A stretch of DNA of 56,734 nt, filler included, from Bipalium vagum (lineage: Eukaryota), in the NCBI GenBank assembly GCA_037834085.1. It is 3 parts of 3 records of this genome, joined end to end, with 100 filler letters (N's around TTAATTAATTAA, not from the genome) between each part and the next. Parts side by side here need not be neighbours in the genome. Positions count along the whole stretch, not along the records: positions 39,162 to 56,734 come from JBBMKC010060789.1; 2 more parts are not named here. One strand, given 5' to 3'. Below are positions 19,400-56,734 of this stretch, piece by piece. The stretch's first letter is position 1. Each line of letters begins with the position of its first letter. Below the pieces are notes generated by a model. It searched no databases. It had not been told where the DNA came from and was given only the letters and a program-made list of their open reading frames with translations. Made by a program: the position numbers and the translations under genes.

Positions 19400-19437
19400 G
19401 TAAGTGACCTACCAAATCACGCATTATTATTAATATA

Positions 19438-19540
19438 CCGAAGATACTCGAATATAAGTCGACCTCGTGTATAAGTCGAGGGGGAAAATTGGGAAATTCT
19501 GTGAAAAACCGTATGACTCTAATATAAGTTGAGGTAAAAA
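19438..19540 (+). mobile_element. pogo/Tigger(Tc2)-type terminal sequence
   Basis: TA followed by CCGAAGATACTCGAATATAAGTCGACC with reiterated TATAAGTCG subterminal motifs; runs toward the contig end. Confidence 0.55.
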
Positions 19541-20490: not shown

Positions 20491-20794
20491 TTAACATTTG
20501 ATTTATTTTTGTCAATGGCAAATTTTAGATTTGAATAATTAAGATGACGGTTTAATTATTTTTTGATTTGTGAAAAATAGTAAGATAAGTCTATATTTTA
20601 ATAATTATTATTGAAAAATTAATTAAAGATTTATTATTATTATGGAATTTATGTAATATTTTTTTGTGTGAAAGAATATTTCAGAATGATTTAGAATTCA
20701 TTTAAAACATATGATGTAGAGCTTTATAAAGCTTTTTTGCTTTATTCCTTAATATCTTATAGTTAACAAAATAAACAAGATGTTATACTTTCAG

Positions 20795-23700
20795 ATGGGA
20801 TCTGCCTTCTTTAAGTGAAGAAGATCGAAAATTAGCAGATATAACACCTAATAAATACTCGAAAATAAAATTTCATCCAAAATTGGAAAATGGTCTTAGA
20901 CCTGACATAAAACAAGAAGAAACTAATGAAAATGTAGATGAATTTCTTCAACAGTTCAAAGTTCATCCACATATAGTGGTAGCATTTACTGGTTTATTAC
21001 CAGAGCAAAGAGACAAGTTGACAGACCTTGTAGTCAGTCTGGGTGGTGAAGTGACGGAAGATATGAATTCGTTTACCCACTTAGTTGCAAAAAGTATTGT
21101 GCGAACTCCAAAATTTTATTTTGGCATATTACGTGGTTGTCAAATAGTTACTATAAAATGGATACAAGCTTGTGTATATAGACAACAATTTATTGGTAAT
21201 TATTTTTATAAAATATTTTTTCATTATTGTGTTTCTATGGATGTTTTTGAATAATAATGGAAAATATTCAATAGTTTATAATTTTTTTATTATTTGATAG
21301 CCAGTTTAGATGAAAAACGAAAGAATTAAATCAGCCAATGATTATTTAATATTTATTAATATCATTATTATCAATCTTAATTTTCTTTAATTAATTGATT
21401 TTACATTCCACGGAAAACATGGTTGATGTGAAAAAAGGACAACTTGTAAAATTTGGAAACTTATTCAAAATATAATCCTTAAAATTTAATATAGCTTAAA
21501 AAGAAATTAAATATTTTTAAAAGCAATGATAATTCTCTTTAGATATCTCAAAATCTCTCTTACTGTCTTTTGGACTTCCTAAATAATATTGATGCGGTTT
21601 CCATTCGTAGTCTTGAATATTCAAATTTGGTGAATAAGTAGTTGGCACCGTAATTTCTTTTCTGACAAAGTCAAACTTTACTTTGTATATGTTTGATCAT
21701 CAGAAGATATTCATCTTTTGGTTTGGTGGTTTGTCAGTAGCTCTATGGCTTCCAATGAGTTTTTGTCTTAATTTTTATGTCAAGACAATAGACCAATCAA
21801 AGTTCTTTTTGATCACTTGTCAGCAAGTGAGGAACAAAACGCCTGCAGTTTTTCTGTTGTTATAAATGTATTCTGAGAATATTAGTGATTTATTTATTGA
21901 GTTTGGTAGATATATATTTACCTTGATCCTTTACATGAATTTTAAACACTGAACAGTATGTGACAAAAATCTTTGTGAACAGTTTTCTCCATTCTGCAAT
22001 CTTGAATACCACTGTCGAATACATTCTGTCGATTCAATGGATCTAAAATTAGCTTTTAAATCACCAGAAATATTACATTGACACAACCTAATTATTTTAC
22101 ATTTAATTGTTAAAATCTAAAATAAATACTGTCATTAGATATATAAGAAAGGAACAAGACAACCTTGAAATTTTTAATAATAACCAGATATTGAGCACAT
22201 AAAATGAAATTAATCATTAAGAGTTACCACTGTCATCTTTCATATTTATCACTAGTCACCTTTAGTATGGGTACTTACTGTATATATTGAAAACTAATAT
22301 TTAAATTTAAATCGATTTTAGTCAAATTTTGCAAAATAAAAATCATAAAATTTCAACATAATATTTTTGAAACTTTTTAATTTTTGTCTTTGATTTACAT
22401 ATATAAAAGTCTGACATCAATTTAAAACTTAATAAAGAAAATTTAAAACTAATGTTGAAATGTATTGGTTTTGACAGATGAGAAACTTTGGAGACTTAAA
22501 GATAAAGAAGGTGAGTTACAATATGGATTTTCGCTTCAAGAATCCTTAGCAAGAGCTCAAAGCAGATTAATAAATCAAATGAAGCCGCTATTCGACTCTT
22601 TGGAGTTCTTTTTGTCCCCACGCGCAAAGCATCGTCAGGTTTGTATTGATTTGATACGTGCGTGTGGTGGCACAATTCGAGAGAAGAGACCTATCCAGAA
22701 AATGGCTCTTATGCCTGAACCAAAACATTTGATTATTTGTCATGAAGATGATAGTCATCTTGCAAATTATCTTACCAGAACCAAGACCGGTAATAAAGCT
22801 GTGCATCACGAAGAATTTGTTTTGAGTGGAGTAATGCGACAAGAACTGGATTACTATTCCTATCAAATCCAATATGTCAGTGTGATGAAAAATGCTTATA
22901 ACAATCATGCTGCTCTATCAAATTCAGTTGAGGTTAAAAAATTTTTTTCTTTATCACATCAATATGACTCCTTGATTATTTATTTATTCATTTAAATTCT
23001 ATTAATTAAAAATGACTTTTGATAGTATTGGATGATTTTATAAAAATACTGTTTTTTAAGGATTACTTTTAATGAAAAATTATTAGCATCTGTTTACAAT
23101 TGTATTCCTTTAACTAGCGATAAGCTAGTAAGATCTTAAAAATATTAATTGAACATTTTTATGTCGTGTGTCATCGTTAACCTAAAATGATTATTTCAAC
23201 GGTTGAACTATTTTTAATTTGATAGTTTTTCTTCAACAAAAATCAGATATTTTACGATTACATGATATTTTTGTAATTTACATTTTTTCATCCCCAGTTC
23301 TCAAAATCGTTTGACTATCCTTATAATATTTATTTATATGTTAGTATTTTTACAATTTATAATTTATTAATCAATGTAAATATATAATTTAATATATTAT
23401 TAAATTAAATTATTATTTTTTATAAACTAATTTATCAATATACATGATAATTTTGTAATTAATTAATTTATAGTTTAAAGTGTTATTTTTACATATGAAT
23501 AAAGATCATTTTATAATGTATTATTTATATAAAGATCTTTTTGTACAGACTTTTTAAGTGTTGATTTGTTTTTATTCTATGTGAAGTATTTTAAGATTCT
23601 ATTCTGAGATTTCGGAAATTAACTTTTTAAATGCATTCTTATAAAAAGAATATTTATCATTTTAAATTAAACTAGGAGAAAGATCATTAATTATTTACAC

Positions 23701-23832
23701 TTTTAAAAAATAAATTAATAAAAAAACTTAATTAGTTATTAATTATGATAAAAAATTTAGATAAAAAATTATTTATCTTTGTATAAAGATTAATCTTTAG
23801 AAAATGATTATAAATACTAATTTTAAAATACC

Positions 23833-23894
<62 letters not shown>

Positions 23895-25578
23895 TAAAAT
23901 TAGAATTAGAATTAGAATGTTCCTTACTTTCAACACAAATAGACATAATCATCGGAATTAATTCATGTTTTTCAGTTTAGTTTTACATTTGAGGACAATT
24001 TAACAATGTTGGTCTTCAAAGATTTGTACCGCCAAGTGTTGTTAAGGTCTAATTCAAGAGCGTTTAAATTTAGTCTGTCTCTTTGGAGAGACAGTGAAGA
24101 GGCTAGTTTATAAAGAAATGCATTTCTTAGAAAATTTGTAGACAATAATCATAGTTCATTAGACCTGTGAGACAAAATAATCTGTTGATATTTCAGTAAG
24201 CTTTTGGAGCTGCAATTTTTCAACAGTTTTCAGGGCGTGCTTTAAAGTAAAACTAAGAGGAAAATAGTAATTTTGGAATACAAGAAATTTAGTATTTACG
24301 AGATAGAAATATAAAATTCAAGAAATAAGTGAGATCATAACAAAAATAAATATTTTCAAGTAGAATTTTTAAGGACTTCATTTTTATAAAAATTGAAAGA
24401 TTATTTATTTAAATCTAAACTTAATATTGAGACCTTATTGACTCAATTGACTTTATTTATCAAGGGAAGAAAATACTTTTTATTTTCAAAAAAATATATT
24501 ATATGTACTCAAATGTTAATGTTATATGTTAAAATGTAAAAATAAAGATTTTTGTTAATATCTTAGTATTGTGAAGTACACATTTTTTGAAGTTGGTACG
24601 TTTTTAAATTTTCACATTTCTTAAGTAAGTACTAAAGATGTGGTATAAAGAAATTCGGTACTCTTTAAAAAATTTTTACAATGATACAAGAATGCTAGCA
24701 AGCTGCAAGAACATTTTATAATTTTAATGAGATGCAATATCAGTATGAGTAGCACAATATTAGTTTATTCTACTTTTAAAAATTCATTTTCAGGGTTTTT
24801 TTATAACATACGAAAAAACATTTTCCCCACCTAATATAACAATATTAAAATATTTATTTTTTATATTTCAGTATAATTCTTCTGGTCAGCAGGATTTTTG
24901 TCTAGGAAGATGTAGTCCATCACGGTCCGTCAAGTCGGACAGTACAGCAGAAACCACAAATCAGGCCAGGGAATTAGATTCTTATGAGCATGAGCAAGCA
25001 GCGTCTACAAATCAGAAAATGGAACAGGCTCCATTCATTGTTAAGTCTGAAGCAACGACTCAAAAATATCCTGATTCTAATATCTTTTCCAAAATCGGTT
25101 TTCCTACAACAAATGTTCCAACATCTTTTCCTATAGTCACAAAGAATATTGACCAATTGACAAATTCATCGAGGGATACTGAAATCTTTAAAGACGTAGA
25201 AGAGATTGTTAAAAAGTCGAGCTCGGATATAAAGATTGAAGAATCTGTGGAGTCTGTTGAAAACAGGCCACAGATAAATCCTTCGATGATTGCAGCAGAA
25301 GCTGTTGTTATGTACTGCAAAGATCAAATTGTTAACATATCTTCTCCCAACCAAGAAGCTTTTGGCATGAAAGTTGACGACACGACGGTTCATGGAAATG
25401 TTATCAGTTCTTCAATGGTTCCCATTAATCTACCGGATAAATATAATGCATCCTCAATTATGGTGCGATTTTAATTGATAAAGGTGATATCTGAACTTAG
25501 TTATTTTAGAATCAGCACAGTCAATCTACAATGGATGAAACTATTGAACTACACGCTGCCTCTCCCACAAATGTATAA
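20795..25578 (+). CDS. PAXIP1: PAX-interacting protein 1 (PTIP), 3' part: terminal tandem BRCT pair plus C-terminal extension
   Basis: Exons 20795-21195, 22478-22932, 24872-25462, 25510-25578 (TAA). VAFTGL...LGGEVTED...THLVAKSIVRTPKF...WIQAC...FIDEKLWRLKDKEGELQYGFSLQESLARA...VHHEEFVLSGVMRQELDY matches PTIP BRCT5-6; MDC1 is the less likely alternative. 5' exons lie beyond the contig break. Confidence 0.85.
21450..22282 (-). mobile_element. Decayed Tc1-like element in PAXIP1 intron
   Basis: TYSPNLNIQDYEW (YSPDLNP-like) near 21600-21645; TIR-like TA-CAGTAAGTACCC at the right end. Confidence 0.35.
23834..23894. repeat. (AAT)n microsatellite
   Basis: About 20 units. Confidence 0.95.
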
Positions 25579-39161: not shown

Positions 39162-39283
39162 TTTAAAAAAACTAAATTGAACTTTAAAATACTATATTGA
39201 AGTTTAAAAAAACTAAATAGAGGTTAAAACCCTGTATTGTTCATTACATTTTTAATAAATGGAGAACGAAAGCAATTTATTTA

Positions 39284-40431
39284 TTAAGGTGATTCATAAG
39301 TAATTTCATTTCTTTCTTTATTAGTTCAAAGTAATTTTTTAGTTGATAAAAAATTTTAATATATCGGTGTATATATCAATTTGAAACCTAATAAATTTTC
39401 TAATTAATTTATCTTATATAAATGTAATACCATCTTTTATTTTAGCTGAAATAAAAATGGAAAAAATCGAAATTTGCATTCTGCTTCGAAATTATTGGAA
39501 GCAACAATTTTAAAGAAGTGAAGCTGCCAGAAAAATATGCAAAGTGGAAGGTGAAGGTGTGGTCTCTATTCGTATAGCCAAAATGTGATTCAAAAAAATT
39601 AATAAAGGTGACAATGATCTATACGATCAACCACGTTCCGGTTTACTGATCTAGGTATATCCCAAGAAACAGTTGTCCGACATCTTAAAGCAATCGGTAC
39701 GGTCAACATACAATGTAGAGAAGTATCTCACGATTTGATCGAAGATCAGGCAAGAAAGTTGCTGAAAAATCCACGGCATGCTCGTTTTATTAGACAAATT
39801 GTAACTTCTAATAAAAAGTGGATATTTTTTTACCTATCCTCAAAAAAATAATCAGTGATTGGACTCTGAGCAAGTGGTAGAACCTGTTCAAAAAAGAGAC
39901 CAATTCTCACAGAAGACATTGTGCGTTTGGTGGAACTTCGTAGGCATGATACACTTCAAATTGATTCTAAATAGTATATCACTAGACGCAGACCTATATT
40001 GTTCTCAATTGGATCAATTTTTTTAAAAATTAAAACTGAAATATCCGGCATTGGTCAATCTAAAGCATGTGGTCTTAGAGAAAGATAACGCAAACTGCCA
40101 AGAAAACATTCGAAAAAATCAAAGAATGTGAATCTATTGAACTGTTACCACATCCAGCATACAGTCCTGATCTTGCCCCATTGGATTACCCTATTCTTCA
40201 ATCAATGGCATATTTTCTTCGAGTAATAGAATTAACAACCTTGACGAGATCAAAACGGCGTGCCAAGAGTTTTTCAGGTCCAAGGTCAAGGAATGGTACC
40301 AACAAGGAATCCAACAACTAGCAGATAGATTGCTTAAAACTATTGATTCAAATGATCCTTTATTTTGAAACAATATAATTTTGTTTATATTATTTTAAAT
40401 AATAAACGAAATTACTTATGAATCACCTTAA
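39284..40431 (+). mobile_element. Mariner (DD34D) with both TIRs and TA target duplication, transposase pseudogenised
   Basis: Perfect 24-bp TIR TTAAGGTGATTCATAAGTAATTTC at both ends, TA on each side; ATG 39457 MEKIEICILLRNYWK; PRSG; IVTSNKKWI; HPAYSPDLAPLDY; frameshifts and an internal deletion. Confidence 0.95.
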
Positions 40432-41296
40432 TAAGTTTATATCGATTTGATCTTCAAATTAAAGTTTGATCTGTTTTTTAGTATTGATGTGTTACTCATT
40501 TGGTATTTGTATTGGGTTCCTTATATATGAGACCTCATGTTAAAGGTCAAGATATTCGGATCAAAATCATGTGTAAGGAAGAAACCTCGCCATTCTTTTC
40601 ATTGGTGACACAAAAATAAACTTTGAGCAGATTCTCAAAATGTCTGAGGAATTATTAACTAATTGTATTAAAATAATCATGTTACATACATTTAAAAAAA
40701 TCATTAGGATTTTTATTAATTGCTGGTTTTATTGTTTATATAATATGTAGAAATAGTTTGAACCAGTCAAGTTTAGATGAAAAAGTTTTAAAAATTTTTA
40801 TTTTGTATGAGGCTTATCAGACCTGAGGAGTATTTTAATTATTTATTGTAATTATTTTAAATGTTAACTATTATAAATTTAATTATGTATATATTGGTTA
40901 TTATTTAAAAGTATATGAATGAAATTTTAAATGTAATAAAAAGCAATTTCCAGGTTTGAAAATTTATTTTTTAAATATTTTATTTTTAATCACTTAACAA
41001 ATTTACTCGAGAATGAAAAATTGTATTTTTGATTACAAACAAATTTATATTAAGATTTTTGGAATATTATTTTAAATGTTTTGGTTTACCTTTAAAAGGC
41101 GACACTAGTAAATTACTGTTTACCAAAATTAATCTTTTTAATAAATAATGAAAATAAAATGGGTTTATCGAAATGTAATATTCTAAAAAATGACAATCAC
41201 CTGTTTTAATTTTAAAACGTATTATTTAAAAGTATTATTAAAAGTATGTGAGTGAAAAAAGTTAGTTTTTATATTCTTAAAACTAAAAAAAATCTA

Positions 41297-42960
41297 CATT
41301 CTGAAATGGACCAGTTCTATAATCGGACCAAACTCCATAATAACCAATAATTTGTACTCATCATAATTCTCGATATTTTCATATAAAAAATAAACTTCGT
41401 CCAAAATTTTTAATAATTTGTTTTAATAATATTTAGGTATACAACATTTTCAAAATCAGGATTGAGTAAAAAATTATCATATGAAGATAAATATGATATT
41501 GCCAAGCAACTTCGCAATAAAGAATTTTCCCAGCGAATGCTATGCAAGAAATATAAAACTAGCAAGTCAACAATTCAAAGAATTTATACTGAAATCGAAA
41601 TAAATCCTTTTAAAAATTCAGGAATAGGCTTTGACAGTACTATTTTAGAGATGTTTTAAAGGTTACGTAAGAGAAACTTCCCGATAAATGGTCCGACATT
41701 AAAAAGAATTGCTTTAAATGTAGCAAAAAAACAAATAGAATTCATAGCATTGACAGGTTGGTTGGGTAAATTAAAGAGGTGGCATAAAATCAGTTGGAAA
41801 GTTTCATCCGGAGAAATGAAATCAGCTGATCACTCTCAAACTGAAAACTTCCGAAATATCATGAAAGAAAAAATTAGTCAATATACAGCTGATAATGTAT
41901 ATAACTGCGACGAAACCGCTTTATACTACAGATTAATCAGCAGCAGAAGTTTCGTATTACCACATGAAGAATGTAAAGGCATTAAAATAAAAAAGATAGG
42001 TTAACCCTGTTATTATGTTGCAGCATGACAGGATTGAAAGAAAAACCTTTTATTTTAGGTAAGCATGCTAAACGTCGATGTTTTAAGAATGTCAACGTGT
42101 CAGATCTATATGTCAGATCCGCTCACAATAAAAATGGCTGGATGACGCGTCAAATCTTTCAAGAATGGCTCTCAGATTTTAATAATGATTTAAAAGAAAA
42201 TAAAAGAAAGATTCTTCTTCTGATAGATAATGCTCCATCATATAGCTTTGAAAGTTTCTCCCATTTCAATTCTACAACCTTTGGATATGGGTGTGATAAA
42301 ATCTTTCAAGAATTATTATAATAATAATCTTATTTCAAATTCCATTGAAAAGGAAGTGAATTATATCACGGAAAGCACAAAAAATGTCAGTATATTAGAT
42401 TGCATATACTTTTCTGTAATTGAATGGGATTCAATTAAAACATCAACAATCGTAGTTGTTTTGAAAAAAGCTTTTTCATCTGTAAAAGAAATTGACAGTG
42501 AAATGGACTTAAAAGAACTTACAGATGAAATATTCGAAAATGAATATGAACACATTCAATAGGATATAGTGGTAGAGTCTTGCTCAGATAGCGAGACTGA
42601 TGATAAGATACCCGATATTAATGACGTTTTTAATATTTTTTACCAGGTGGGTGAATTCAAGAAGCATTACCTGCCCCAGAATATAAGGCTCTTTTATGAT
42701 TTTAAAAGTAAGTTCATAATGGGTATACGAAAAGAACATGGGTTAAAAACTAAAATTACGGATTATTTAATTCAAAAACGTTGAAGTATATTGATATTTA
42801 TTGGACTAATTGCTGTTTTTTTAATTTTTATTATTACATCCATATAAGTTCATATAAAACATGTTTTATAGTCTTTTTATGTCTTAACTTCTAATATTGT
42901 ACCAACTTTTATTTTTGGACCACTTTTGAAATTTTGTGATCCAAAATAGAAGTTGCACTG
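41297..42960 (+). mobile_element. pogo/Tigger DNA transposon (CENP-B HTH plus DDE_1), frameshifted
   Basis: GWLGKLKRWHKI, VYNCDETALYY, KNGWMT..IFQEWL, ILLLIDNAPS, LQPLDMGVIKSFK; right TIR TCCAAAATAGAAGTTGCACTG-TA; left TIR decayed. Confidence 0.93.
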
Positions 42961-44039
42961 TAATTACGAATTAATAACGTTTGATAAAAGTAGTGAATAA
43001 TTTCTCATTTTGAAGGTAAATGAAGAGTTTCTGATTTTTGGATAATGAACTTAACAAACCATTTACACACTTCTTAATTGAAAGCCTCTACGATCTTAAT
43101 TATAGGACAAACCGGTTGTATTCCAATTACTGAAATCTGTTATTCCGGCTATTCTGTTTGCCTTTTACTATTTTTATGTTCATGCGTAACTGAGGTAATT
43201 TGAAATCGATCTCCGGAAGTGTTGGATCATTCTCAAATGATCAAAATTGAATGAAGATAGGGAAGCCCATTCAGCATATCAAGACTCTTCATTATCAAGC
43301 TGTCTTTTAAATGATAGTAAAATAAAGGTAAACTGCTCATAGACATTGTATCCTTCAAGGTTATGCATAAACTTCGTTCCTGCCTATTTTTCGAATGATT
43401 GATTCCATAACAACCTTTACTTTAAAATTCCATTACTCGATTATTCGCCGCTGACTGCTTTCCGATGTGAGTATATCGAAATTCCAATGACAGAATCAGA
43501 TAGCAATTTGACTTGATAAACGTTTCAATCCGTTTTCCGAATTCTCACACAAGTCCAAAATGCTACCTTTGGAGCTCGATTTCAATCAAAAGCAATTGAT
43601 GTCGAAATAGAAAATATTATTCCCCACTTTGTGCATTATTAAATTTTTGTTTAATTATTATATCAGTAATTTCTTGTAAGTCCATAATAATTTCAATTAT
43701 CTAAAATTTGTACAATTGTATAAAATATAAAATCTTAAGAAAAGTAATTTACTAATGTTTCCAAAATACTCAGGCCATCTGGAACGTTCTAAAACTAGGA
43801 ATAAAAGGAGAAACACAGAAAATAACATGGGCGATATACAGTATAAAAAAATATTCCGATCTCTCTATCGCTCACTCAAAGTAAAAAATAAGAAAAAGCA
43901 TGTTTTGGTGTTTTGTCCTTAAAGACTGATTTAAAGACTACAATTAACTTATTTTTGCTGGTGAGAATTTTAATTTATTAGATAAAAAAAATTTATCCAT
44001 ATGAATATTTTACTGATTTTGAAAAATCTAATAGAACAG

Positions 44040-46060
44040 AATTGTTGACGCAACTCTTATCTAGCTTACCTAACATACGCTGAGGTTGCTATGAGCTTTT
44101 CTAAAGAGCTCGTATCACACTCTCCAACAAAAACACAAAAGTAACGCTATAACGCTTTATTAAATTAAATGAGGGTAAGACCCTTTACACAAACAAAGGC
44201 AGTCACTCTCAAATCGGCAATCAAACTAAATCACCAAACTGCTCAGGCAGTCTCAACACAAACAACCTCCTTAATTAAAAAGCTGTGCTAGGAAAAACCC
44301 TGGTCAGCAAAAAAAAATTACCAATATAAAACATACCTTTTTATCTGGCAATTTTCTGGGCGAAAAATAATGAATTTTCGGTGGCCTATTTACTATTTTA
44401 TTGTTCGTTTTAGAGTCTCTGATTGGCCAGTTAAGCTATCAATCAGGACGTACTTTCTATATTTAATTACTAAAAATAAAATAAATTTCTAAAAATTTTG
44501 AAAATTATATTTTTAGAAATACATACTATACTGATTACAAATCACTCACCTCTAATCAGTATACCATACATTAATATGGCAGCCATCACCAACTCGGATC
44601 CGATCACTGAACGTCTCCAACCAAAAACGTTCTGTAAGGGTGATGATGTGTAAAAATTCACCACGCAGTGCATAATGTATTTCACGGTGAAAGAGACACC
44701 AGTGAAAAGAAGTGAAACGTTGATCTATTATCTATTAGACTTAGATTTAGTAGAGAAGTATGAAAGCACGGCCGGAAAAGGTATTGGATTCGAAGGAAGA
44801 TTACGATTGGCATTTTCCAAACCAAAAGATATAATGGGTGATTTGGAAAAGTTAATCAACTATCGTAGAGAAGCCGATAATGTGGAAAATTTTCTCGAGA
44901 AGGTCCATAAGATAAAAGGAAAATATCTTGTTACATGAAATGACAATGGAAAGACTTTTGATAAAAGCGCTAATTAGATGCATAAACGATCCAGAAATCG
45001 AGAAGGAGATTGAAATGAGGAAGTTTGGAAGTATTGAAGAAATGGAAGATCTAATTAAATTAATGGATGGAATCCGACAGAAACAGTCTGATCATGTCAA
45101 TATCATCAGGACCTACAGAAACGTAGCGAGGAACGGTAGATATCAAAACGTACGAAGATAGGAAGCAGGATATAAGATTTGATCTGTTGTAGAGAAAGTC
45201 AGACGAGAATCACGTGTTACTAGACCTTTTGCAAGAATGGCAAACAACAAGAATGCAAATAGAATATTGGACATGTAAAAAAGTCGGACATATAAGACTG
45301 TTCAGAGAAGAAAATTCCTACATGTTTTGGATGTGGAAAAGCAGGACACATACGTAGGAATTGCGCAGTTTTCAAATGTCAAATGTGTGGAAGAAATGGT
45401 CACCAAGCTTCAGAATGCTGCACAAATCTAAATAGAGGTCAGAGAAGAAATAAGAATTTTTACGAAAGTAATCAGGAGATGCGTGGAAATAAAAGAAGTA
45501 ATGCGGTTAGTGAAAATATTGATTTAATATCGGAAGGAGATTGCATGAGAGAAGAATGTAAGAATGCATCAGTGTACCCAAAAGACAAGGCTCCACTAGT
45601 AGGAGAGCTAGTGGGAGCCATATACAAGAAATCGAAAATGATTATTTCCAAAGGATTTAGACTGAGGAAGGAGTGACGCGAACAGTAGAGAAAGTTTACA
45701 GATTTTTAAAGAAGCAGTTTGGGATTGAAGATTGTAATCGGGTGAATGCGATTGCAGAAAGTGAAGAGACATTTATTTCGTATGACAGAATGCATGGTCG
45801 TTCAAGTATGAGAGTAAGAGTCCAGGATTTGGAATTGGATATTCTAATAGATACAGAAGCAGGAATTAATATAATGAGTACGAAGATTGCCCAGAAACTG
45901 ACAGTTGTTAAGATTCAACAGTATGGTGAAAAACTGAGATGAGCAACTGACAATTATTTAGAGACAAGAGGGTCAATAAACCTAGAGGTCAGCGTTGGTC
46001 AAGTTTGAAAAGTTGAAAAAAATCGTAGTGGTTGAAAGTTTCATCCCTGAATTGACAGGT
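44040..46060 (+). mobile_element. Ty3/Gypsy LTR retrotransposon 5' part (LTR-like region, gag, protease), degenerate
   Basis: gag from ATG 44576; CCHC knuckles CFGCGKAGHIRRNC and CQMCGRNGHQASEC; protease LIDTEAGINIMS; stops and frameshifts; breaks off at 46060. Confidence 0.85.
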
Positions 46061-46064
46061 GGTA

Positions 46065-46530
46065 TATATATACATATATACAAGCAATATTATTCCTGGG
46101 CAGGGGGAAGCACCGTCTCCAGAGGAGAAGTTAGGTATATATGATAGGACTTCCTGACAGCCTCAGTTAAGAGATTGTGGGCTAGAGCACGTCTCTGATT
46201 ATTAGAGAGGCCATATTTTCAGAGGGCCTCATTTGCAATATCCCAAGATCCAAGGAAGCTCACATTGAGGACATCTAAAAGGACTTTCGAGCGATTTGCT
46301 GCAGTAAGACGGTCTGCAAGGGAGGTATATTTGATGCGATTGCTCCCGGGTGGTGGTAAAATTCTTCATGGAGTCATAAGGGACGTTGATGTCTAGAATT
46401 ACAATAAGTTTCTTGGTTGGCTGGCAAATGATAAAGTCCGGGCGTGGCGTTGATTGTAACTCATATTGTAACTCAACCATATCGGTGTCCACATCAAACC
46501 CGAGTGCTCAGAGATACTCGACAGCCACAT
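46065..46530 (-). mobile_element. 3' fragment of an RLE-type non-LTR retrotransposon (NeSL/Utopia/R2-group endonuclease domain)
   Basis: RPDFII...KKLIVILDINVPYD (PD..D nuclease motif); after one frameshift IKYTSLADRL...VLNVSFLGSWDIANEAL...RKSYHIY; visibly GC-richer than the flanks. Confidence 0.8.
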
Positions 46531-46786
46531 GCAACTTTACAGAACGCAAATATAAGTTCACGTTTCTGTCTTTATTCAATTTAAATTTCCAGATTCTTCT
46601 TTTTGTGTTTAATTCTGACAATTACAATCTGGTAAACTAATTATCAGATTCGATTTTTTACTTCAGGGCATCTACACATTTCTTCGTGTAGATTGACACC
46701 TTCAAATAATTATTGTCATTTTGATTTTAGTGTAAAACCTTTTTAAAAATTTGTAAAAATTGTATTTAAAATAAAAGTTTTAAAAA

Positions 46787-47070
46787 TCATTTTGTTCGCC
46801 TTATTTGTGATAGTTCTTTTTCAGGCTTTATTTTATTTTTAAATTTATTATAAATTTCTTCTTTATATAATCCATTTTCAAAAACATTTCTTATGCATTC
46901 AATTTCTGGTTGAATAAAAGCAGTTTTAGAAAAAATTACAAGATTATTGTAACCTAAATATTTTTCTTGTAAAAGCATATTACATAATAAATTTGTTTTT
47001 CCTGATCCAGAATGGCCAATAAGTAAAATTCTGAAAATTTTGGTAAATTAGGATGATGATTAAATTTTAT
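46787..47070 (-). pseudogene. Polinton/adintovirus A32-like (FtsK-HerA family) packaging ATPase, N-terminal fragment
   Basis: HHPNLPK/FRILLIGHSGSGKTNLLCNMLLQEKYLGYNNLVIFSKTAFIQPE; Walker A GHSGSGKT at 46994-47017; intronless. Confidence 0.75.
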
Positions 47071-47144
47071 TTAACTATCAAAATAAAGATTCTTCACTAT
47101 TTTGTAAAATTTTTAAAATTTATTTAATTTGACTTCGTTTTAAC

Positions 47145-47580
47145 TCAAGCTTGTTTGAGGTGGATAATAAAACTGATTTCTCCATTAAAAATTATTAGTT
47201 CATTTTTGTTATCAAATATCTTAAAGTTTATTTCATTAATAATTTTTATAATTCAAGGATAATAAATTAAAAATTTTGATTTTTCAATAATTCCAGAACC
47301 TCTTCTGTCATTTTTCGAAGGAAAGTCGCAAATAATATTTGTTCTTCACCATCATGAAATTCTCTTTCATCAATATTACAATCAATCTGGGTTCTATTTA
47401 TCATAAGAATTGTAACCATTTTCTAATTCATATCCTTTTGTACAACATTTGTTTTCAAATCCTAACACCTCAGTAATTAAACATGAATTCTGAAGTCGAA
47501 TTTTGAATACACCAGGAGAATCGAATAAAAATTGACTTTAATATGAAATCCATTAATAAATTATTCTTTTATTTATTTGT
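47145..47580 (-). pseudogene. Polinton/adintovirus minor capsid (penton) protein, C-terminal part, frameshifted
   Basis: ITEVLGFE ... VTILMINRTQIDCNIDEREFHDGEE/NIICDFPS...GSGIIEKSKFLIYYP*IIKIINEINFKIFDNKNELIIFNGEISFIIHLKQA-stop follows the recalled penton pattern LGF..I.CNI...NG...I..F...G..I.E.P...IY.P...I.D.....V.F.GE.I...LHL. Confidence 0.65.
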
Positions 47581-48939
47581 TAGTTTATTCATTCACTTAT
47601 TATTTACCCGCGTCTCAAGCCAACTATTACTGATTTAAAATTTGAAGTCAGATCAGAACAAAGAGAGCCCATGAGATCACACTTAATTAAAATGCCACAA
47701 AATATCGCTTGTTTTACTTTAATAAAATTATTTGTATTGTCCCATGTATGATTACTATTGATTTTTTCATTCCTCGAGTTTCTCAAAAAAATACTTGATA
47801 GACGCTCTGGGGAATCATAGTCCTCTCAGATCTCACCTTGAAAAATCTTCTACTAAATAAATCGTAAATGCCTCACAACAGAAACTCAATAGTTCGCAAA
47901 AGCTTACTTCAATCTATAGTTCTCTATAGTTCTCTATAGTTCACTTTTAGTTTTTGGTTCTTACTTCTGAAACCAAAAATAGTTTTTTGTTTTTATTCTT
48001 TAGTTATCTTCTTAGTCAACTTTTCTATTCCATTAATTAGCAGAGTTCATGTGATTTACCAAGAACTATTGCGCCTCAAGATCTTTGAATCAGCCACCAA
48101 TCTAAATTTGGAATTTACGTCATCTTCTCTTCTTTTTTCATTCATCTGATGAGGAAAAAACTCTAAGCTTAATATAGAATCATCTTGAACACGTTCAACT
48201 GAGAGCTTTAAGACCTAAAGAGAATTAATTTTCTCTTCTTATAAATTAATATTCAAAAGAATATTAACCAATTTTATTTTTATCCCATATTCTTACTATC
48301 TATTATTTCCATCTGAGTTCACTGTTTTATTTTGTTTCGTTCGCTATTAGGAAAAAGATAAAAGATTTTCAACAGATTTTTTCGACAACTTCGAAAGGAA
48401 AAATAAACCTAAGAAATAATTATTAAAGGGTCAATCACTTTTAAGAAGGTCAATTCTTCTTTCGAGTTTAATCAATTCACCTTCGAATTCGATTCTATCT
48501 TTAATTTCACTCAATTTTAAGTATAACATTTTAAACTGACTCATGTCTTTTATAGAGATTCTACTACTCCATTACATAGAAGAGAGATTCTCTACCAGTC
48601 AATGAATATTTCTCTTTCCATTAGTTAAATGAGAATCCAGTACCCTTTAATGATTCAACTGATTACGGACGTATTCGCCTGAGCTGAATAATAAATTATC
48701 CTTTAAGACACCTAAATAAAAAATCTGAAAATAAATATTTTATTTTTAATATTGAAAAGGTATAATGAAAAAAATTAGGAATTGTTATAGTTGCATCTTC
48801 CTTGAGTAACATATTAGCTACAACATTATTTGACATTATATTTCATCATCAAAAATCTTCATTCATCAAATCCAGAAAGCAGATTAATTTTCTATCCAAA
48901 AACGATTTCAAAGGATGAGAATTTGATGAAACTTTGTTG

Positions 48940-49312
48940 AGTCGGATTGATTCTAAATTTTATTCTTGACAAATAGATCATGACAGCTCATTTCTTCACT
49001 ACCTCCCTTCAGAAAGGTCGTCAACATATATCGAACGGTACGTATCACTCTTTCCACTAGTCCATTGGATTGATGTTGGTAAGCAAAGCTGAATTCATGC
49101 TTTATCCTCAGGTCTATCCAGTTTTGCTGCAGTCGTTCATTTTTCAAGTTTTTCCCTCTGTACGTTAATATGTTCTTTGGTATTCCGAATTTGTGGATTC
49201 AGTTGTTCATGACCGACTTGAATATTGACTGATTACCAAGTTTGGACAAAGGACTCAGACTTCCTAAATCGCTGAAACGATCAATAATGATAACTAAATA
49301 CTTGTGACTATA
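48940..49312 (-). mobile_element. Ty3/Gypsy integrase core fragment
   Basis: HKYLVIIIDRFS...HKFGIPKNILTYRG...AYQHQSNGLVERVIRTVRYML. Confidence 0.85.
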
Positions 49313-49660
49313 CAAAAATAAAATTATTTTGTTAAGGTGAGACAATGAATAAAAAAAGTGATTGTATAATTCTTTAGCAGTTAAAAATTCTTTAATTATT
49401 TAATGACTTCAAATAATTAGATCTTATAAAAAAGTTAAGAAATGAAGAGTTAATTGAATAAATTTTAACAAAGTAATATTTTAAAATAATAAAATTTTTA
49501 AAAATTAAATATTAATTCATTTATAATGAACGACTAGATGATTTTATATTAAATGCTATAAATTACAAATTCATATTTTACACATTTTACCTTTGTTTAT
49601 AAATTTCAAAATATTACGCATACTCTTACACATAAGAAATTATTTAAATTTAAAAATTAG

Positions 49661-52600
49661 TATAAACTTTGGATGGAATATGATGAATTTTGTATTATAT
49701 GTTTAGAAGATATTTTAAAGGATGATGCGGTATATCATTGATAATTAATTGATCTCAATTATCATATTTTATTTTCAATTTAATAGATATGGAGTTGTTC
49801 CATGTGCTATTGTGAATATCATCTCGTTTGTATCAGTAATTGGATATTTCAGTATCAAAATTCTAAGAAGAAAACGTTAATAGAAGAACAAGAAAGCTTA
49901 GACTTGTCAGAAGGTTATAACATAGCATTAAATAGATTAAATAAATTAATAAACGATGCCGATCAATGGTCTTGCCCAAAATGCAGGAACATGTTTTCCC
50001 ACGAAGATTCACCAAATAAATATTTCTGTTATTGTGGAAAAGTAAAAAATTTTGGAATAAAATAAAACATTCCAACAATAGTTCAGGTTAGTAATCCAAA
50101 AAACAACCACTGGCTGAAGCCTCACACATGTGGAGAAATTTGTGGAAAATTCTTAAAGCCATATTGTGGCGATACTTGCTTGGAATTATGTCATCGTGGA
50201 CCGTGTCCACCATGTCCAAAAATATTGAAAAATTCAACGTGTTTCTGTGGAAAGCGAAGCGAAAGTGTTATTAGGTTTGTAATTTAGGAATTGAAATCAT
50301 TTTCTGTATTTTAATAATTTTCAAAAAAATATAGATGTTGTCAGCGATTCTGGTCTTGTGGTAAAGTATGTGATAAAGCATTGTCATGCGGCATTCATTT
50401 TTGTGATAAAATTTGTCATGTAAATTGTGGCCAATGTGATATGTTGGTAACCAAAGCTTGCTTGTGCAATGAAAATTCGAAAACCGTCAAGTGCTCTGAA
50501 GATTGGCAATGCTCGAAGGTAACTAGGAGATTTTAAATAATTTATTTTAAGGTAATAAGGTAACTGCTTATTATAAGAAAAGTGATTTTTTTCAAAAATG
50601 TTGTTTTATAAATCTGATATTCAAAAAAATCAGTAAAAATGTAATGGAAAAGAAAATTTATTAATTTTGTGGACTGAAATAATGTAAACTCCCGACAATC
50701 TTATCAGGAATTTTAATCATGACTAAGCTGATTTGGATGAACTAAATGTTGGTGTAGTTTTAACGAAATTTCGAATAAAAAATTACTCAAAAGAAATTCT
50801 AATTTAGTTAAATTTAATCGTAAATCAATATAGGTCATCAATAAAATATTAAAAACAGATTGTCAAATGTTGAGTTTGATTAATGACAAAGTATAGTTAA
50901 TTTATAGTACCAAAATTTATCAAAAGAAAAATAGATAGTTTTCTTTAAAAAAAAGTGGACGCGGCTTTTTACTCAACATTCTACCGAAATTGGGAAAAAA
51001 GTTTGTTAAAAAACGATTTTTAAAACATTTCTGAGTAAAGCGAAATGTTATAGTTTTGAATTTTAGTCACAAAAATTGTAATTATTAAGACATGTTTGGA
51101 CATAGTATGAAGAATAAAATGTGATTGGAATAATTATTTCAAAAGTTATTATAAGACAGATCTCTATCAAACTTGATAAAGTATTAAAAATGATCTAATA
51201 ACGATAGGAATTTAATTTTTTGACATAATTTTAATAGTGATAATGAAAAGGAATAGTTATTGAGGAGATGAAGGCGCCCTGATTGTCTTATATTTGAATT
51301 TCAAACTTAGTTAAATTCTATTGTAAATCAATATAATAGTTATCAGTAAAATATATGAAAATAGTATTTTGTTTTCTGTCAATTTTTTAAAAGTACACTG
51401 GATTACAGTCAAATCTCATTTCTATGTCACTCTTGCTTGATCATGACAGGTGGCATAGTTACGAGATTTGACTGTGTTGAATTTGATTAATGCCGAAGCT
51501 TTTTGAGTTATCTTTGCGGTTGAGCTTCAATCATGTGGGATTAGTTTTGGTATGCAATAACTCATTAGTCGTATAGTGGTGACATTGAGAATTCGACCTG
51601 TCATTAATGGATGACCTTCAATGTACAATAGATTACATTTGCTGTCAATCAGTCTACGACTTATTTTTACTAAATCTGTTCAATTTTCAAAAATTTTAAA
51701 AATATTATTTGATGAGCTTAGTTTTGTCTAGTTTTCATTGTCAATTTAATAACAAACGAATTTCTATCGAAAGCTTCGAATTAAAAAAAATATTGACAAA
51801 TTATATTTAGAAATATTCACTAGGATATGTTTATTCAAACAAGACTGAATCATAAAAATTGCGCCAAATAAAAAGGATGTAACACAAGATTTCAGAACTC
51901 CTAAAAATCTTGAATTAAAAAAGGAACTTTGATAATAAACTGTTCTGATTCTTGAAAATCGATTTTTATAAAACTTATTATCGTTAATCTGAATATTTGT
52001 ATTCCGATCGAAATTGGTATTTCGAATTAATTAACGAACGATTACATTTTGATTGCTAAATATGAAAACAAAAATGATTTGCAGAATTGTAAAACTGTCG
52101 ACGAATCACTTCTTAATAAATGTCCTTGTGGGAAAACGAATTTGGAGGATCTTAGTTCCGGTGACGGTTATAAACCGATGACCTGCAAAGACACTTGTGA
52201 CAAAATTTTGGATTGTGGCATTCACAGATGCACTGAAAAGTGTCACCTCGGCGGATGTAGTGATTGCAAACAAGTGGTCAGTAAAACGTGTCGTTGTGGA
52301 GCAACTGTGAATATGGTATATTATTTTATTAAAATATTATGAACAGTCGTTTAATAATCCAAAACAGGCTTTATGTCATAAAAAGTTGACTTGTAACAAT
52401 AAGTGTGCACGTTGGAAAAATTGCAATAAGCATCAATGTAAACGTCGGTGCTGTGACCCTAACCTGGATTGTGCTACGTGTGAGTTGACATGTGGCAATT
52501 TACTAGGTTGTCGTAAGCATCGATGTCAAATGCGGTGTCATTCTGGGCCATGCTTTCCTTGTCGAGCGACTATTGATGTGAGAATTATTTGTTTTCTTAA

Positions 52601-55600
52601 TAATATTTATTTGACATTGATGGTTATCTTAGTTTTATTATTGATATCCGAGATTTTTTTTCCTCTGTGAATATATCATTACTTTATGAATTCATTAAAA
52701 ATTGATATTTGATTAAAGATTAATTGTTTAATTATTATTATCGATTAAATAATGATATTGGTTAATAATTTTAATTGATAACTGATTTTTTATTAATTAT
52801 TTCTAGATGAAATAAATAATTATTGATCTTAATATCTTTCTGTCACAAGTTTCACATTTATTTTGCATTGATAATTGATAATGATTAAAAGTGACAATCG
52901 GTGAAAAATTTATTGTACAACTAAATCTGTCAAATATCGACTTTGAAGTAATTATTTACTTATAAAAATGAAACTTTATTTTCGAGATTATTTATAAAGT
53001 AAGGAAACGCTGATTATGAGATTTTATTAAAAGATATAACTGTGTATAACAGTTAACAAAGAATCACTTTGAAATTTTCTATCATGTAGTTCGTTAATTA
53101 TTTAAATGTGATTGATAATAAAAAATACAGTAAAAATAATTATTAATCATTTTTAAATTTTATTTATAACAAATAATATAGAAAACGTAAAATTATTGTT
53201 CAGAGATCTGTAAATAATTTTTATTTTTAAATTCCGAATTGTATATCTATTTAATATTTAAAAATATGATTTTAGAAATTTTGCCGAGACTTCGTTATAA
53301 ATTATAACATTTCGATTTAATAATTTTTTGTGAAAAATGGTTGAATCTGTTGATCACATTGGAAAATTACTTGCTACTTTTTTGGCCTGATTTTCTCAAT
53401 TGAAATATATTTTTCTTTGTCACTAATTATGGTCTGGTAGTATAGAATTTGGGTTCAGGAAGCGTAAAAAATCCATTTTCACATAGGTCTCATCATCCAT
53501 AACAATAAAATTTGATGAATTAGCATGGAGCTACTTATCCAACTTTCGTGCCCCAAAAATTACCTTTTTCCTTTGACCAAGACTTCGCTTCGGACTTTTT
53601 TGGTTTTTAATATCCATAAATTGCTTCTGTTCTTAACTCTTTGCACCATTGATTGAAATGAACCAAGTCCTTGTGAGATCTTGATTTATCCTTTTCAAAA
53701 CCAATCATTACAGTAATTTCAGTTTTATTGAGACTTTTTGGACGACTATGTCGAAGTTTAATTTCTAATGTTTCAAGATTTTAGATATTATTTAATTACT
53801 CTTTGAACTATTAAAAAAAAAACCAAGTTCTTTTGCAATGTATTTTCTAGAATTTCTTAGATGTTTCTTGTAAGCACGCGCTAGTTTTTGCCTTTTTCTA
53901 CTTCACAAATCATGTTTGACAAACAGCTAAAAATGAATTCAACTTTAACAATAAAATGAATGGCATGAATCATATTTTTAATTGATAAATTAAGAAAATT
54001 GATTGAACTTTGATGAAATAAAAACGACATTACTTTTCGGTTCAGTCCTTTTTTGATCATTGATAATGATTAAGTAAATGAAACATTTATCGTACAAAAA
54101 ATCTATGAAATATTGACTTTGTTAATCAAAGAACTCATTATTTAATTTAAAAACAAAAATCATTCAAATAAATTAAAATATTAGGCTACAAATTTTAACA
54201 TTTTTTATCGTAGTATGGTGATACAAAATTAAGCTGGAAAATCACTTAATTCAGTACATCTAATAAATCTCAATCACTTATCTAACCATGAGTAAAATTG
54301 TCCTTATCTTATGCTTTTATTGCGATGAAGAATAGATTTTTTAAAGATTTCATTGCATTTCTAAAGAGTTTCATAAGTGTCATTCTTTCTTAAAACTGTT
54401 TTTTTATAAAGTCAATGGTTATTATTTAAAGTCAGAATATTTTTCATTGTAATTTCAAAAATGTGCTTTACCATCAGTTTCGGCATTATTCGACTAGACA
54501 CTAAGTAACTTAATTCATCAAAATTATATTTAAAATGAAAAAAATACAAAACCTACATTTACGAAGGAAATTTTACACATTCGCCACTTCCATAATTTAA
54601 ACAGATTATTTACTATTAATTTTATATATTAAACACATTTTAAAACTGCTTGAAAAACAGAAATTTTTATGATCCTAATCTTTATTTTGAAAAAGGAAGT
54701 TAAATTTTTATCAATAAAATGCCTTGTGTTATGAATTCTGAAATGATTTTGAATTTATTTGAATTTTATAAAGTTTATAATATTATTCGATAAATTATTG
54801 ATCAATAAGTTTTTAAGCTTTACTCATTTTATAGAGAAATTTTCTAAATTAAAATTATCAATTTTGCAAACTCTGATTATCTAGGTGTCTTGTTCTTGTG
54901 GAAGTATGATGAAACGGGTTACTTGTGGCGCAAATATTAATAAGATTTGCGAAAATCTTACGAAAATATGCGTAAACCCTTGCAAAGCGGTATCAAAATG
55001 CCATCATGAGAATCGACACAAGTGTCATTCCAGTGAGTAAAGTGTGAATTGTTGTATTATTTCAGTCATGTACTATAGAAATTGAAGATTGCCCACCATG
55101 TAAAGAGATTTGTACAAATGCTTTAAGTTGTGGTCATAAGTGTCAGAAAGTGTGTCATGATTCAATTAAAACCGTAATCCGTTTGGATAAGTCAAAGTTG
55201 GCTGGCCCATGGGAAGCAGCAGATGATGGGAAAATAATTTATGTGTCGCAATCTTGCCCACCATGTGACGTGGAATTATCTTTAATTTGCTTTGGAGCAC
55301 ATGAAGTAATTAAGTTTTCGCCAAAAATAATGACTAATTTAGTTAAACTCGTAAAAACTGATTAGATAATTTTTTAGATAAACTGTTAAGTTAACTAATA
55401 ATCAATGAATCCTCATTTTCTTTTATTATTTTCTACATTTTAGACATCGTAACTTTCCTATCATGTCTCATAAATAATATAAAGTTTTTATAACTTTTTT
55501 CATCAAAAATAAACAAATATCAAATAGACATTTATTAATATAAATAATAATTAATTTTCTTCTTCTTCTTATTTTTTTTATTATTATTATTTTTTCCATA

Positions 55601-56018
55601 ATTTAATCTTAAAACTAATAAATTTTTTAAATGATCTACATTTTGGTTTTTAAAAAATAATTTTTTAATTATTTAATCAATATTTTTTATAATGTGAAAA
55701 AAACCATAATTTTTTCACAGGCTTATTTTTTCATTACTTTTGATCTTTCATGCAAAAAATAACATTTTTGTCATCTTAATACCAATGGTGTTAAAAGACA
55801 AAATAAAATTCTTAGAGTAATCATGGGATTTTTAAATCGTTCTTTTTTCTTGACTATTTCAGCTAATCAAATATGAATGTAGTCGACCGATAATGTACGG
55901 ATCTTGTGGAAAGCAATGTGATCGATTGCTTTCTTGTGGAAATCACACTTGTTCTCTGGAATGTCATCCTGTATCGAATAATAAATGTCCAGATAAATTA
56001 TTAGGAGAAGCAGTCAAG
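49661..56018 (+). CDS. NFXL1: NF-X1-type zinc finger protein NFXL1 (RING/PHD-like finger plus NF-X1 repeats); continues beyond the window
   Basis: Exons 49661(or ATG 49673)-49729, 49787-50041, 50087-50274, 50335-50518, 52085-52315, 52368-52577, 54885-55032, 55079-55305, 55863-56018, all GT-AG and in phase. Motifs: CIICLEDI..DAIWSCSMCYCEYHLVCISNW, WSCPKCR, YFCYCGK, WLKPHTCGEIC, KHQCKRRCC, LGCRKHRC, AGPWE. Confidence 0.9.
51406..51474. mobile_element. 69-bp Tigger-like MITE/hairpin in NFXL1 intron
   Basis: TA-CAGTCAAATCTC...GAGATTTGACTG (12-bp perfect TIR) plus inner CTATGTCAC/GTGGCATAG pairing. Confidence 0.75.
53290..54050 (-). mobile_element. Tc1-like DD37E (ITmD37E)-type remnant in NFXL1 intron
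   Basis: FIVMDDETYVKMDF at ~53470-53510 matches the VMDDETYVK signature recalled for ITmD37E transposases. Confidence 0.55.
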
Positions 56019-56105
56019 GTCAGTTATGAATAATTTAAATCGAAATATTAAAAATTATTATCATTCAATAATATATTAAAAATAACTAAATTGAATTATT
56101 ATATA

Positions 56106-56435
56106 CCAGGGTGTTTCATAAATATGAATACGCGTTTAAACAAATAAAAATTGATCAATTTGTCAATGAACATGAATCATTTTTATATATTATTGGAAAA
56201 AAATATTTTATAGAAATCTGGAAAACATTATGGAGAAATCAGTCTGATTCCTATAGATCTTTGTAAGAATGTTTGCAGATCTGTATTGTCAAGATTACAG
56301 AAATGTATAGATGTCCAAGGAATGCAAACTGAACTATTTTAATATATTTTATTAATATATTAATATATTTTCTGACGAGTTGATCAATAAATTCTCTTGA
56401 AAATTAGTTACTTATTTTTGCTTTAAACGCGGATA
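56106..56435 (+). mobile_element. Short non-autonomous Tc1-like element whose right TIR is interrupted by a second insertion
   Basis: Left end CAGGGTGTTTCATAA...ACGCGTTTAAA; transposase tail VCRSVLSRLQKCIDVQGMQTELF; inner right TIR TTTAAACGCGG. The same TIR family ends at 19758-19778. Confidence 0.65.
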
Positions 56436-56437
56436 TA

Positions 56438-56734
56438 CAGTACCCGCGGAAAGTTTAGGAACACCTATAGAAAAGAAAAAATTAATATTTCATAACATTA
56501 TATAACATTACATTACATAACATAACATTAATTCATAACATTATTTCATAACATATTTCATAACATTTATTTAAAATAATAAGATTAATTATACAAATAG
56601 GTCCTGTAATTAATATTTACAAGCATAGCCTTTGTTTTTAATAACAGATTTTATCCAATTAGGCATTGAACTAACTAAACGTTGACACTGTTCTTCGTTT
56701 ATTTGATTTGTCCAAACTTCATTAATTTTCTCTT
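56438..56734. mobile_element. Terminus of a Tc1 element inserted at TA
   Basis: TA-CAGTACCCGCGGAAAGTTTAGGAACACC (Tc1-type TIR), followed by CATAA/CATTA pentamer repeats at ~56490-56565. Confidence 0.6.

Follow-up and report, generated by a model that had tools for sequence, protein, structure and literature searches.

The window analysed here, a 56,734-nucleotide stretch of DNA from Bipalium vagum, very probably contains a broken internal fragment of a Polinton/Maverick element of 0.7 kb, which is cut by repeats on both sides and likely non-functional, and which belongs to a family that likely spread by self-synthesising, integrase-driven copying and had its arms recombined. The fragment, called the shard below, is located on contig C60789 (window positions 39162-56734, GC content 28.6%) and consists of Polinton-derived DNA at about 46814-47507 on the minus strand, with what remains of two genes, a penton gene (C-terminal half) and a gene for an A32-type packaging ATPase (N-terminal third). 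As a fossil it is ordinary and its kind is known, a dead piece of a Polinton/adintovirus family, and it is unimportant by itself as one dead piece among hundreds. Judged by its reading frames, it is predicted to be unable, as it stands, to encode either the penton or the ATPase.

The penton pseudogene (minor capsid, PX) occupies 47148..47507 on the minus strand and represents profile positions of about 134-256 of 257, with stops in frame. Searching the window with a penton profile of 126 sequences yielded three minus-strand pieces (47507-47430, 47431-47330 and 47345-47148) with iE values of 0.0038, 0.0005 and 1.9e-14, which we tested and found to align colinearly with full-length pentons, and the plus-strand frames of the shard region scored below 0 with the same profile. 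The gene is interrupted by two frameshifts and by stops, and its end is represented by IFDNKNELIIFNGEISFIIHLK at 47148 on the minus strand. The first-pass annotation had described two adjacent, frameshifted minus-strand frames at 46787-47580 as a penton followed by a packaging ATPase, and both of the peptides it quoted were indeed present at that place and on that strand. The lower part of this extent proved to be Polinton DNA, but about 70 bp of its upper end do not belong to the penton, because 47488-47671 is another repeat; likewise, both genes are present as a pair, but just as the C-terminal half of the one and the N-terminal third of the other.

The A32/FtsK-type packaging ATPase pseudogene follows at 46814..47097 on the minus strand, as delimited by matches to Pox_A32 and to relatives from the host. 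Its start near 47097 lies in a different frame; a stop interrupts it at about 47072 and a frameshift follows at about 47042, both placed by eye against the natural frame of copy L028. The peptide FRILLIGHSGSGKTNLLCNMLL...YNNLVIFSK sits in an open frame at 47047-46787 on the minus strand. The Walker A motif GHSGSGKT was located at 46994..47017 on the minus strand, with 86 open codons around it, and appears as GPSGSGKT, GSSGCGKT and similar versions in relatives. The homology stops at about 46814-46826, ahead of the positions of the Walker B and TRGRH motifs present in the relatives, whose alignment columns contain Walker A, a Walker B of the LIIFDD type and TRGRH. The top Pfam match of the window piece was Pox_A32 with an E value of 3.4e-4 and 20.6 bits, which is below the cut-off of 22.8, and its identity to natural host ATPases amounted to 46-63% with E values down to 3e-24. 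The natural host copy L027 scored above the cut-off with Pox_A32 (36.2 bits, E 5.8e-9), which bears out the A32-like identity proposed for the gene at first reading.

Both ends of the shard are bordered by unrelated repeats. A younger repeat outside the Polinton adjoins the ATPase cut at 46533..46811, with copies of 89-95% identity and about 0.8 kb elsewhere, and an apparently non-coding repeat at 47488..47671, with copies of 74-81% identity, lies at the penton cut. The window yielded no further Polinton gene, with MCP, pPolB, integrase and TIR all absent beside the shard, and because of this its family membership rests on homology to copies linked to these parts. The closest DNA relative among the best 40 matches listed was only 81% identical, so the shard is probably an old copy.

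The same contig contains several other features. Positions 44654-45942 (+) contain the decayed remains of a gag of the Ty3/Gypsy-like type, with zinc knuckles (PF00098, E 5.7e-6), and match an aspartic protease weakly; they were rejected as a part of the Polinton. An integrase core fragment at 48953-49198 (-) matching rve_3 with an E value of 0.012, which we take to be Gypsy-like from its motif, was also rejected, as it was unmatched by the Polinton integrase. Positions 46150-46535 belong to a high-copy repeat of about 85% identity, and a frame at 46507-46229 presumably has similarity to the restriction-like endonuclease found in non-LTR retrotransposons, with no match in Pfam. A broken pogo/Tc5-type transposase (HTH_Tnp_Tc5; DDE_1, E 3.4e-18) is present at 41417-42562 (+), and a multi-exon host gene of the cysteine-rich NF-X1 type extends over about 49800-56050 (+), with a zf-NF-X1 match of E 0.038 in one exon. 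Elsewhere in the window, a BRCT gene of the second stretch was recorded at 20775-25474 (+), for which 3 out of 269 candidates matched, all from trematodes at 60-65% and one named PAX-interacting protein 1, which marks the host as likely a flatworm, and an exon at 19127-19474 (+) which we take to resemble methylmalonyl-CoA mutase.

Pfam and PDB sequence searches returned nothing useful for the penton, which was identified by fold search alone. The 260-residue natural penton L069 was folded with AlphaFold2 from a 126-row alignment, resulting in a model with a pLDDT of 96.4 and a pTM of 0.88. Foldseek matched this model to the mavirus penton (6G42) with an E value of 1.9e-11, and the comparison of the two gave a VIA Z of 13.7 and an rmsd of 7.3 over 236 aligned residues. 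Further Foldseek matches were the minor capsid protein of Sputnik and the penton bases of adenoviruses, with TM values of 0.4-0.5 for these and the mavirus match, and PLV, MELD, adomavirus and adintovirus proteins matched as well. The model of this natural relative supports the view that the penton would adopt the single-jelly-roll fold of the mavirus and adenovirus pentons, in agreement with the identity assigned at first pass, and the window pieces match the profile of the same family.

Relatives of both proteins are numerous and mostly without names. L069 had 1247 relatives among cluster representatives. Of 323 database candidates for L027, 37 were relatives, nearly all of them unnamed, with 60-71% for the best. 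Scanning IMG/VR with a single ATPase yielded 0 relatives from 5 pattern matches, and the search with the ATPase alignment retrieved 1 of 155 in IMG/VR and 45 of 596 in metagenomes. No names were attached to the 9 nearest proteins in a cluster look-up, and P0041 led to viral clusters in the Atlas named only 'hypothetical protein'. Three environmental relatives of the penton are close (57-64%) and also unnamed, and they group with the host copies in a penton-only tree (SH-aLRT 96). Because these three proteins fall within the host penton group, the lineage is not confined to the host genome.

The host assembly searched for the family amounts to 441 Mb and is fragmented into 272,664 contigs; all match counts are lower bounds, and the candidate numbers are not copy numbers. 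We obtained at least 150 matches for the ATPase (150 scored, 1065 candidates), at least 151 for the penton (150 scored, 1762 candidates), at least 122 for the MCP with PF21738 (126 scored, 446 candidates), at least 138 for the protease with the protease-like frame of IMG/VR element L096 as query (150 scored, 329 candidates), at least 75 for pPolB with PF03175 (91 scored, 676 candidates) and at least 42 for the TIR (40 scored, 503 candidates). Stops are common in these matches and most open frames are short, 70-140 codons being usual among the 150 ATPase copies listed. The gene order was read on single contigs picked from the top of the match lists and usually runs TIR-INT-protease-three conserved frames-penton-ATPase-MCP on one strand, facing pPolB-TIR. 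The MCP gene lies directly downstream of the ATPase gene on many contigs, the rve integrase is represented by a frame of L030 above the PF00665 cut-off and upstream of the module, and the protease frame sits between integrase and penton. We take the protease-like frame of L096 to be adenain-like from its motifs; it has no Pfam match. A search with Peptidase_C5 of Pfam also found no match for the protease, and because the control was equally silent, we did not conclude from it that the protease is absent.

Evidence for TIRs comes from loci with polymerases of class A (see below). The TIRs of the family measure about 200 bp. Contig C211705 contains an inverted repeat pair of 84% identity flanking the region from integrase to pPolB. 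In 7 loci the TIR sequence recurs about 350-370 bp upstream of the class-A pPolB, and other loci have it beside the integrase. About 9 of the approximately 35 TIR ends listed start with ACACA. As to 6-bp TSDs, the one contig with both TIRs lacked the outer end of one of them, and no examined contig contained both complete ends. The family has every gene that characterises Polintons (six core genes) together with TIRs. Many copies have internal deletions, and no complete intact element of 15-20 kb was seen among about 250 host loci examined in this fragmented assembly. The expectation that intact relatives exist elsewhere in the genome was accordingly confirmed for single genes with full open frames, but not for a whole element within the 272,664 contigs.

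The linked-gene search proposed at first pass recovered pPolB, MCP, protease, integrase and TIRs, all on contigs with related copies, and the shard can be regarded, as suggested there, as a fossil of a capsid-encoding dsDNA virus lineage. The ATPase relatives are linked to MCP and pPolB and did not prove to be intron-bearing host genes lying apart from these. Matches to cellular P-loop proteins only, a complete lack of matches, or a genome without linked copies were not what we found, because related copies are linked to MCP, protease, integrase, pPolB and TIRs.

Some copies deviate from the common type. In L028, L030, L043 and L172 the polymerase arm includes a cysteine-rich frame, which separates pPolB from the capsid module. 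L067 (contig C202218) has a pPolB gene with a GC content of 35% (20-28% in most copies), which is about 41% identical to the common class A and split into frames of 936 and 305 codons; it likely represents a separate Polinton family. The protease-like frames of L140 and L141 (C225724 and C247288) share 44-48% identity with the one in L096, and C225724 also has an MCP match, whereas the other copies showed 30-48% to the L096 protease, mostly over shorter matches and with E values of 1e-9 or weaker; L140 and L141 are likely members of a further Polinton family.

The capsid module of the family is adjoined by three classes of pPolB (A, B and C), whose mutual similarity is weak, local and barely alignable. 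Class A matches PF03175 strongly (113.5 bits), class B is divergent with several subtypes, has a weak PF03175 score or none and shows 37% to IMG/VR element L096, and class C has a weak PF03175 score and gave 110 matches, several per contig. We consider it probable, with moderate confidence, that one capsid lineage has repeatedly swapped its whole polymerase arm among these deeply diverged classes, that it did so at the spacer following the MCP gene, and that the chimeras went on to multiply. Among the 40 closest DNA matches of the shard listed, three (C195907, C202913 and C123335) have class-B pPolB pieces adjoining the module, and C6067, also among the closest matches listed, contains a class-A pPolB and a second penton.

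Module and pPolB were found together on 48 contigs, 36 of which were labelled as convergent and 12 excluded as tandem, rearranged, doubly occupied or tiny. Adding 4 class-C contigs gave 40 labelled rows, of which 6 were dropped for length and 34 entered a combined penton, ATPase and MCP tree. On this tree, which was derived from a quick search with gappy rows and in which several class labels come from short pPolB pieces, the 34 host capsid modules came out as a single clade when rooted with two environmental outgroups (SH-aLRT 100), and 9 class changes were counted (minimum possible 2; shuffled-label mean 13.0, 1 of 200). The exchange was therefore not free, because polymerase class is more clustered than shuffled labels. 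At least 4 class changes each for A and B are forced by strongly supported branches, and a monophyletic class A was rejected with a p-AU of 1.9e-64.

The DNA of individual copies locates the change of class. L189 (class A) shares 89-90% DNA identity with L176 or L181 (both class B) over the capsid arm, ending at the 3' end of the MCP gene, and 81-86% with L036 (class A as well) over the same arm. Among the matches listed, those between classes end about 60-290 bp beyond the MCP end, and copies of the same class match on into pPolB, as seen for L094 and L183 (87%) or L180 and L181 (91%). A class-B polymerase is combined with the class-A-type capsid clade in five separate contigs (L074, L176, L180, L181 and L182), and because this combination recurs, we argue that the chimera was itself copied. 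Short repeated matches common to classes A and B were observed in the AT-rich spacer between MCP and pPolB of L187 and L040, and may have served as a crossover substrate. A segment of the class-A pPolB (L077:2847-3647) presumably resembles a VSR-type nuclease, and one in class B (L047) presumably resembles endonuclease VII; the Endonuclease_7 profile matched in L096 only.

If instead the shard were as described and each active family had one polymerase, the mixing would have to reflect misjoins, nested insertions or recombination of dead copies. We regard this as unlikely. In its favour stands an assembly of so many contigs, in which 12 of the 48 contigs with both parts had to be set aside, many copies carry internal deletions and polymerase class is partly clustered on the capsid tree. 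The five separate contigs with a class-B polymerase beside the class-A-type capsid clade speak against it, as does the DNA shared by L180, L181 and L182 both across the MCP end and within pPolB, which is likewise shared by L176 and L181. Because these copies differ by 10-25%, repeated misjoins at one spot would be improbable.

An origin of the shard from a virophage, a Polinton-like virus, another non-Polinton element or a contaminant contig appears very unlikely to us. The top structural matches of the penton are indeed those of virophages, PLVs and giant viruses, because few Polinton structures are present in the structure set searched, but linked copies carry an rve integrase, an adenain-like protease, pPolB and TIRs, and the MCP matches PF21738, as does that of L096. 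Contamination is contradicted by the multi-exon NF-X1-type zinc-finger gene and host transposons on the same contig and by the spread of related copies over more than 150 contigs. That the host domesticated this penton/ATPase pair, or uses it in a form that still works, an idea for which the 86 open codons around Walker A might be cited, is extremely improbable in view of the two frameshifts and stops in the penton, the stop and frameshift before Walker A, the lack of Walker B, the truncation of both ends by other repeats and the fact that open frames of 70-140 codons are usual among the 150 copies listed.

Among Polintoviricetes, replication of the excised linear DNA starts at its ends and is carried out by pPolB, insertion is the task of the rve integrase, and an icosahedral particle would be built and filled by MCP, penton, ATPase and protease. 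A Polinton parent family would have spread through the B. vagum genome by such self-synthesising, integrase-driven copying, and deletion after insertion, together with later insertions, may have reduced the copy in the window to 0.7 kb, as usually happens to Mavericks. Recombination between co-resident elements while the family was active would have taken place within the MCP gene or just behind it, where the convergent arms meet in a short AT-rich spacer. This may have joined one capsid lineage to three polymerase classes, with some of the chimeras amplified further.

Protein-primed polymerase copying, rve integrase insertion and genes for an icosahedral particle are described for Polintons/Mavericks (PMC4028283, PMC11161782), with which the B. 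vagum family shares all six core genes and TIRs; its penton sits at one gene's distance from the MCP, which is the commoner Polinton layout (PMC4028283). The TIR ends differ, often starting with ACACA as opposed to the (AG)3 or (AGT)2 ends of vertebrate Mavericks (PMC8097293), and the copy in the window differs by being a dead 0.7-kb shard. Degraded copies also far outnumber intact ones in vertebrates, with 134 intact Mavericks versus more than 2,000 without discernible TIRs (PMC8097293). By the descriptions given for adintoviruses, class A fits the 'archetypal pfam03175' PolB of the Alpha group and class B is divergent like the Beta PolB; an Alpha PolB joined to virion genes of the Beta type has been reported there as well (PMC8502044). 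In contrast to the adintoviruses, a single capsid lineage within one genome is combined here with all three classes (A, B and C).

Closely related nematode Polintons differ only in highly diverged polymerases (pPolB1/pPolB2), for which recombination with a resident element was proposed (10.1101/2023.08.22.554363), and frequent switches of the replication module are described for PLVs and group 2 Maverick-Polintons (10.64898/2026.06.19.733378). Because polymerase replacement in Polintons is already published, the exchange observed here extends a known process, and its record in this family is well supported but not unprecedented. Compared to the nematode elements, there are three pPolB classes instead of two, with at least 4 forced changes within one genome, cross-class DNA identity of up to 90% and a crossover zone in the MCP-pPolB spacer. 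The unnamed IMG/VR element L096 (on a 16.9-kb contig) is homologous to the family in ATPase (33%) and penton (30%, E 7e-35), and shares MCP, protease, integrase and a class-B-like pPolB (37% to L047). It differs in having the ATPase before the penton and the MCP further off, in tandem with pPolB, and falls outside the host clade.

Polintons have been reported in another flatworm genome, that of the planarian Schmidtea mediterranea, where they are silenced by piRNAs (PMC8532177). The suggestion that the lineage was possibly undescribed thus holds at the family level, but not for Polintons in planarians as such. The literature searched, outside of which lay most subscription journals and Repbase, yielded no account of the genes or the polymerase exchange of flatworm Polintons; PMC6431247 and PMC11131425 contributed nothing specific, and flatworm terms were absent from the available part of the supplement of PMC8502044.

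The family adds a high-copy flatworm Polinton lineage and provides a within-genome test bed for the trading of DNA polymerases. Polymerase exchange is known from nematodes and adintoviruses; here it appears to have happened repeatedly, to involve three classes and to map to a spacer a few hundred bases long. If this is true, the family would represent a modular virus with two arms, and the DNA of hundreds of copies within one animal genome would preserve its history of recombination. The family also raises the question whether polymerases so different use the same terminal repeats.
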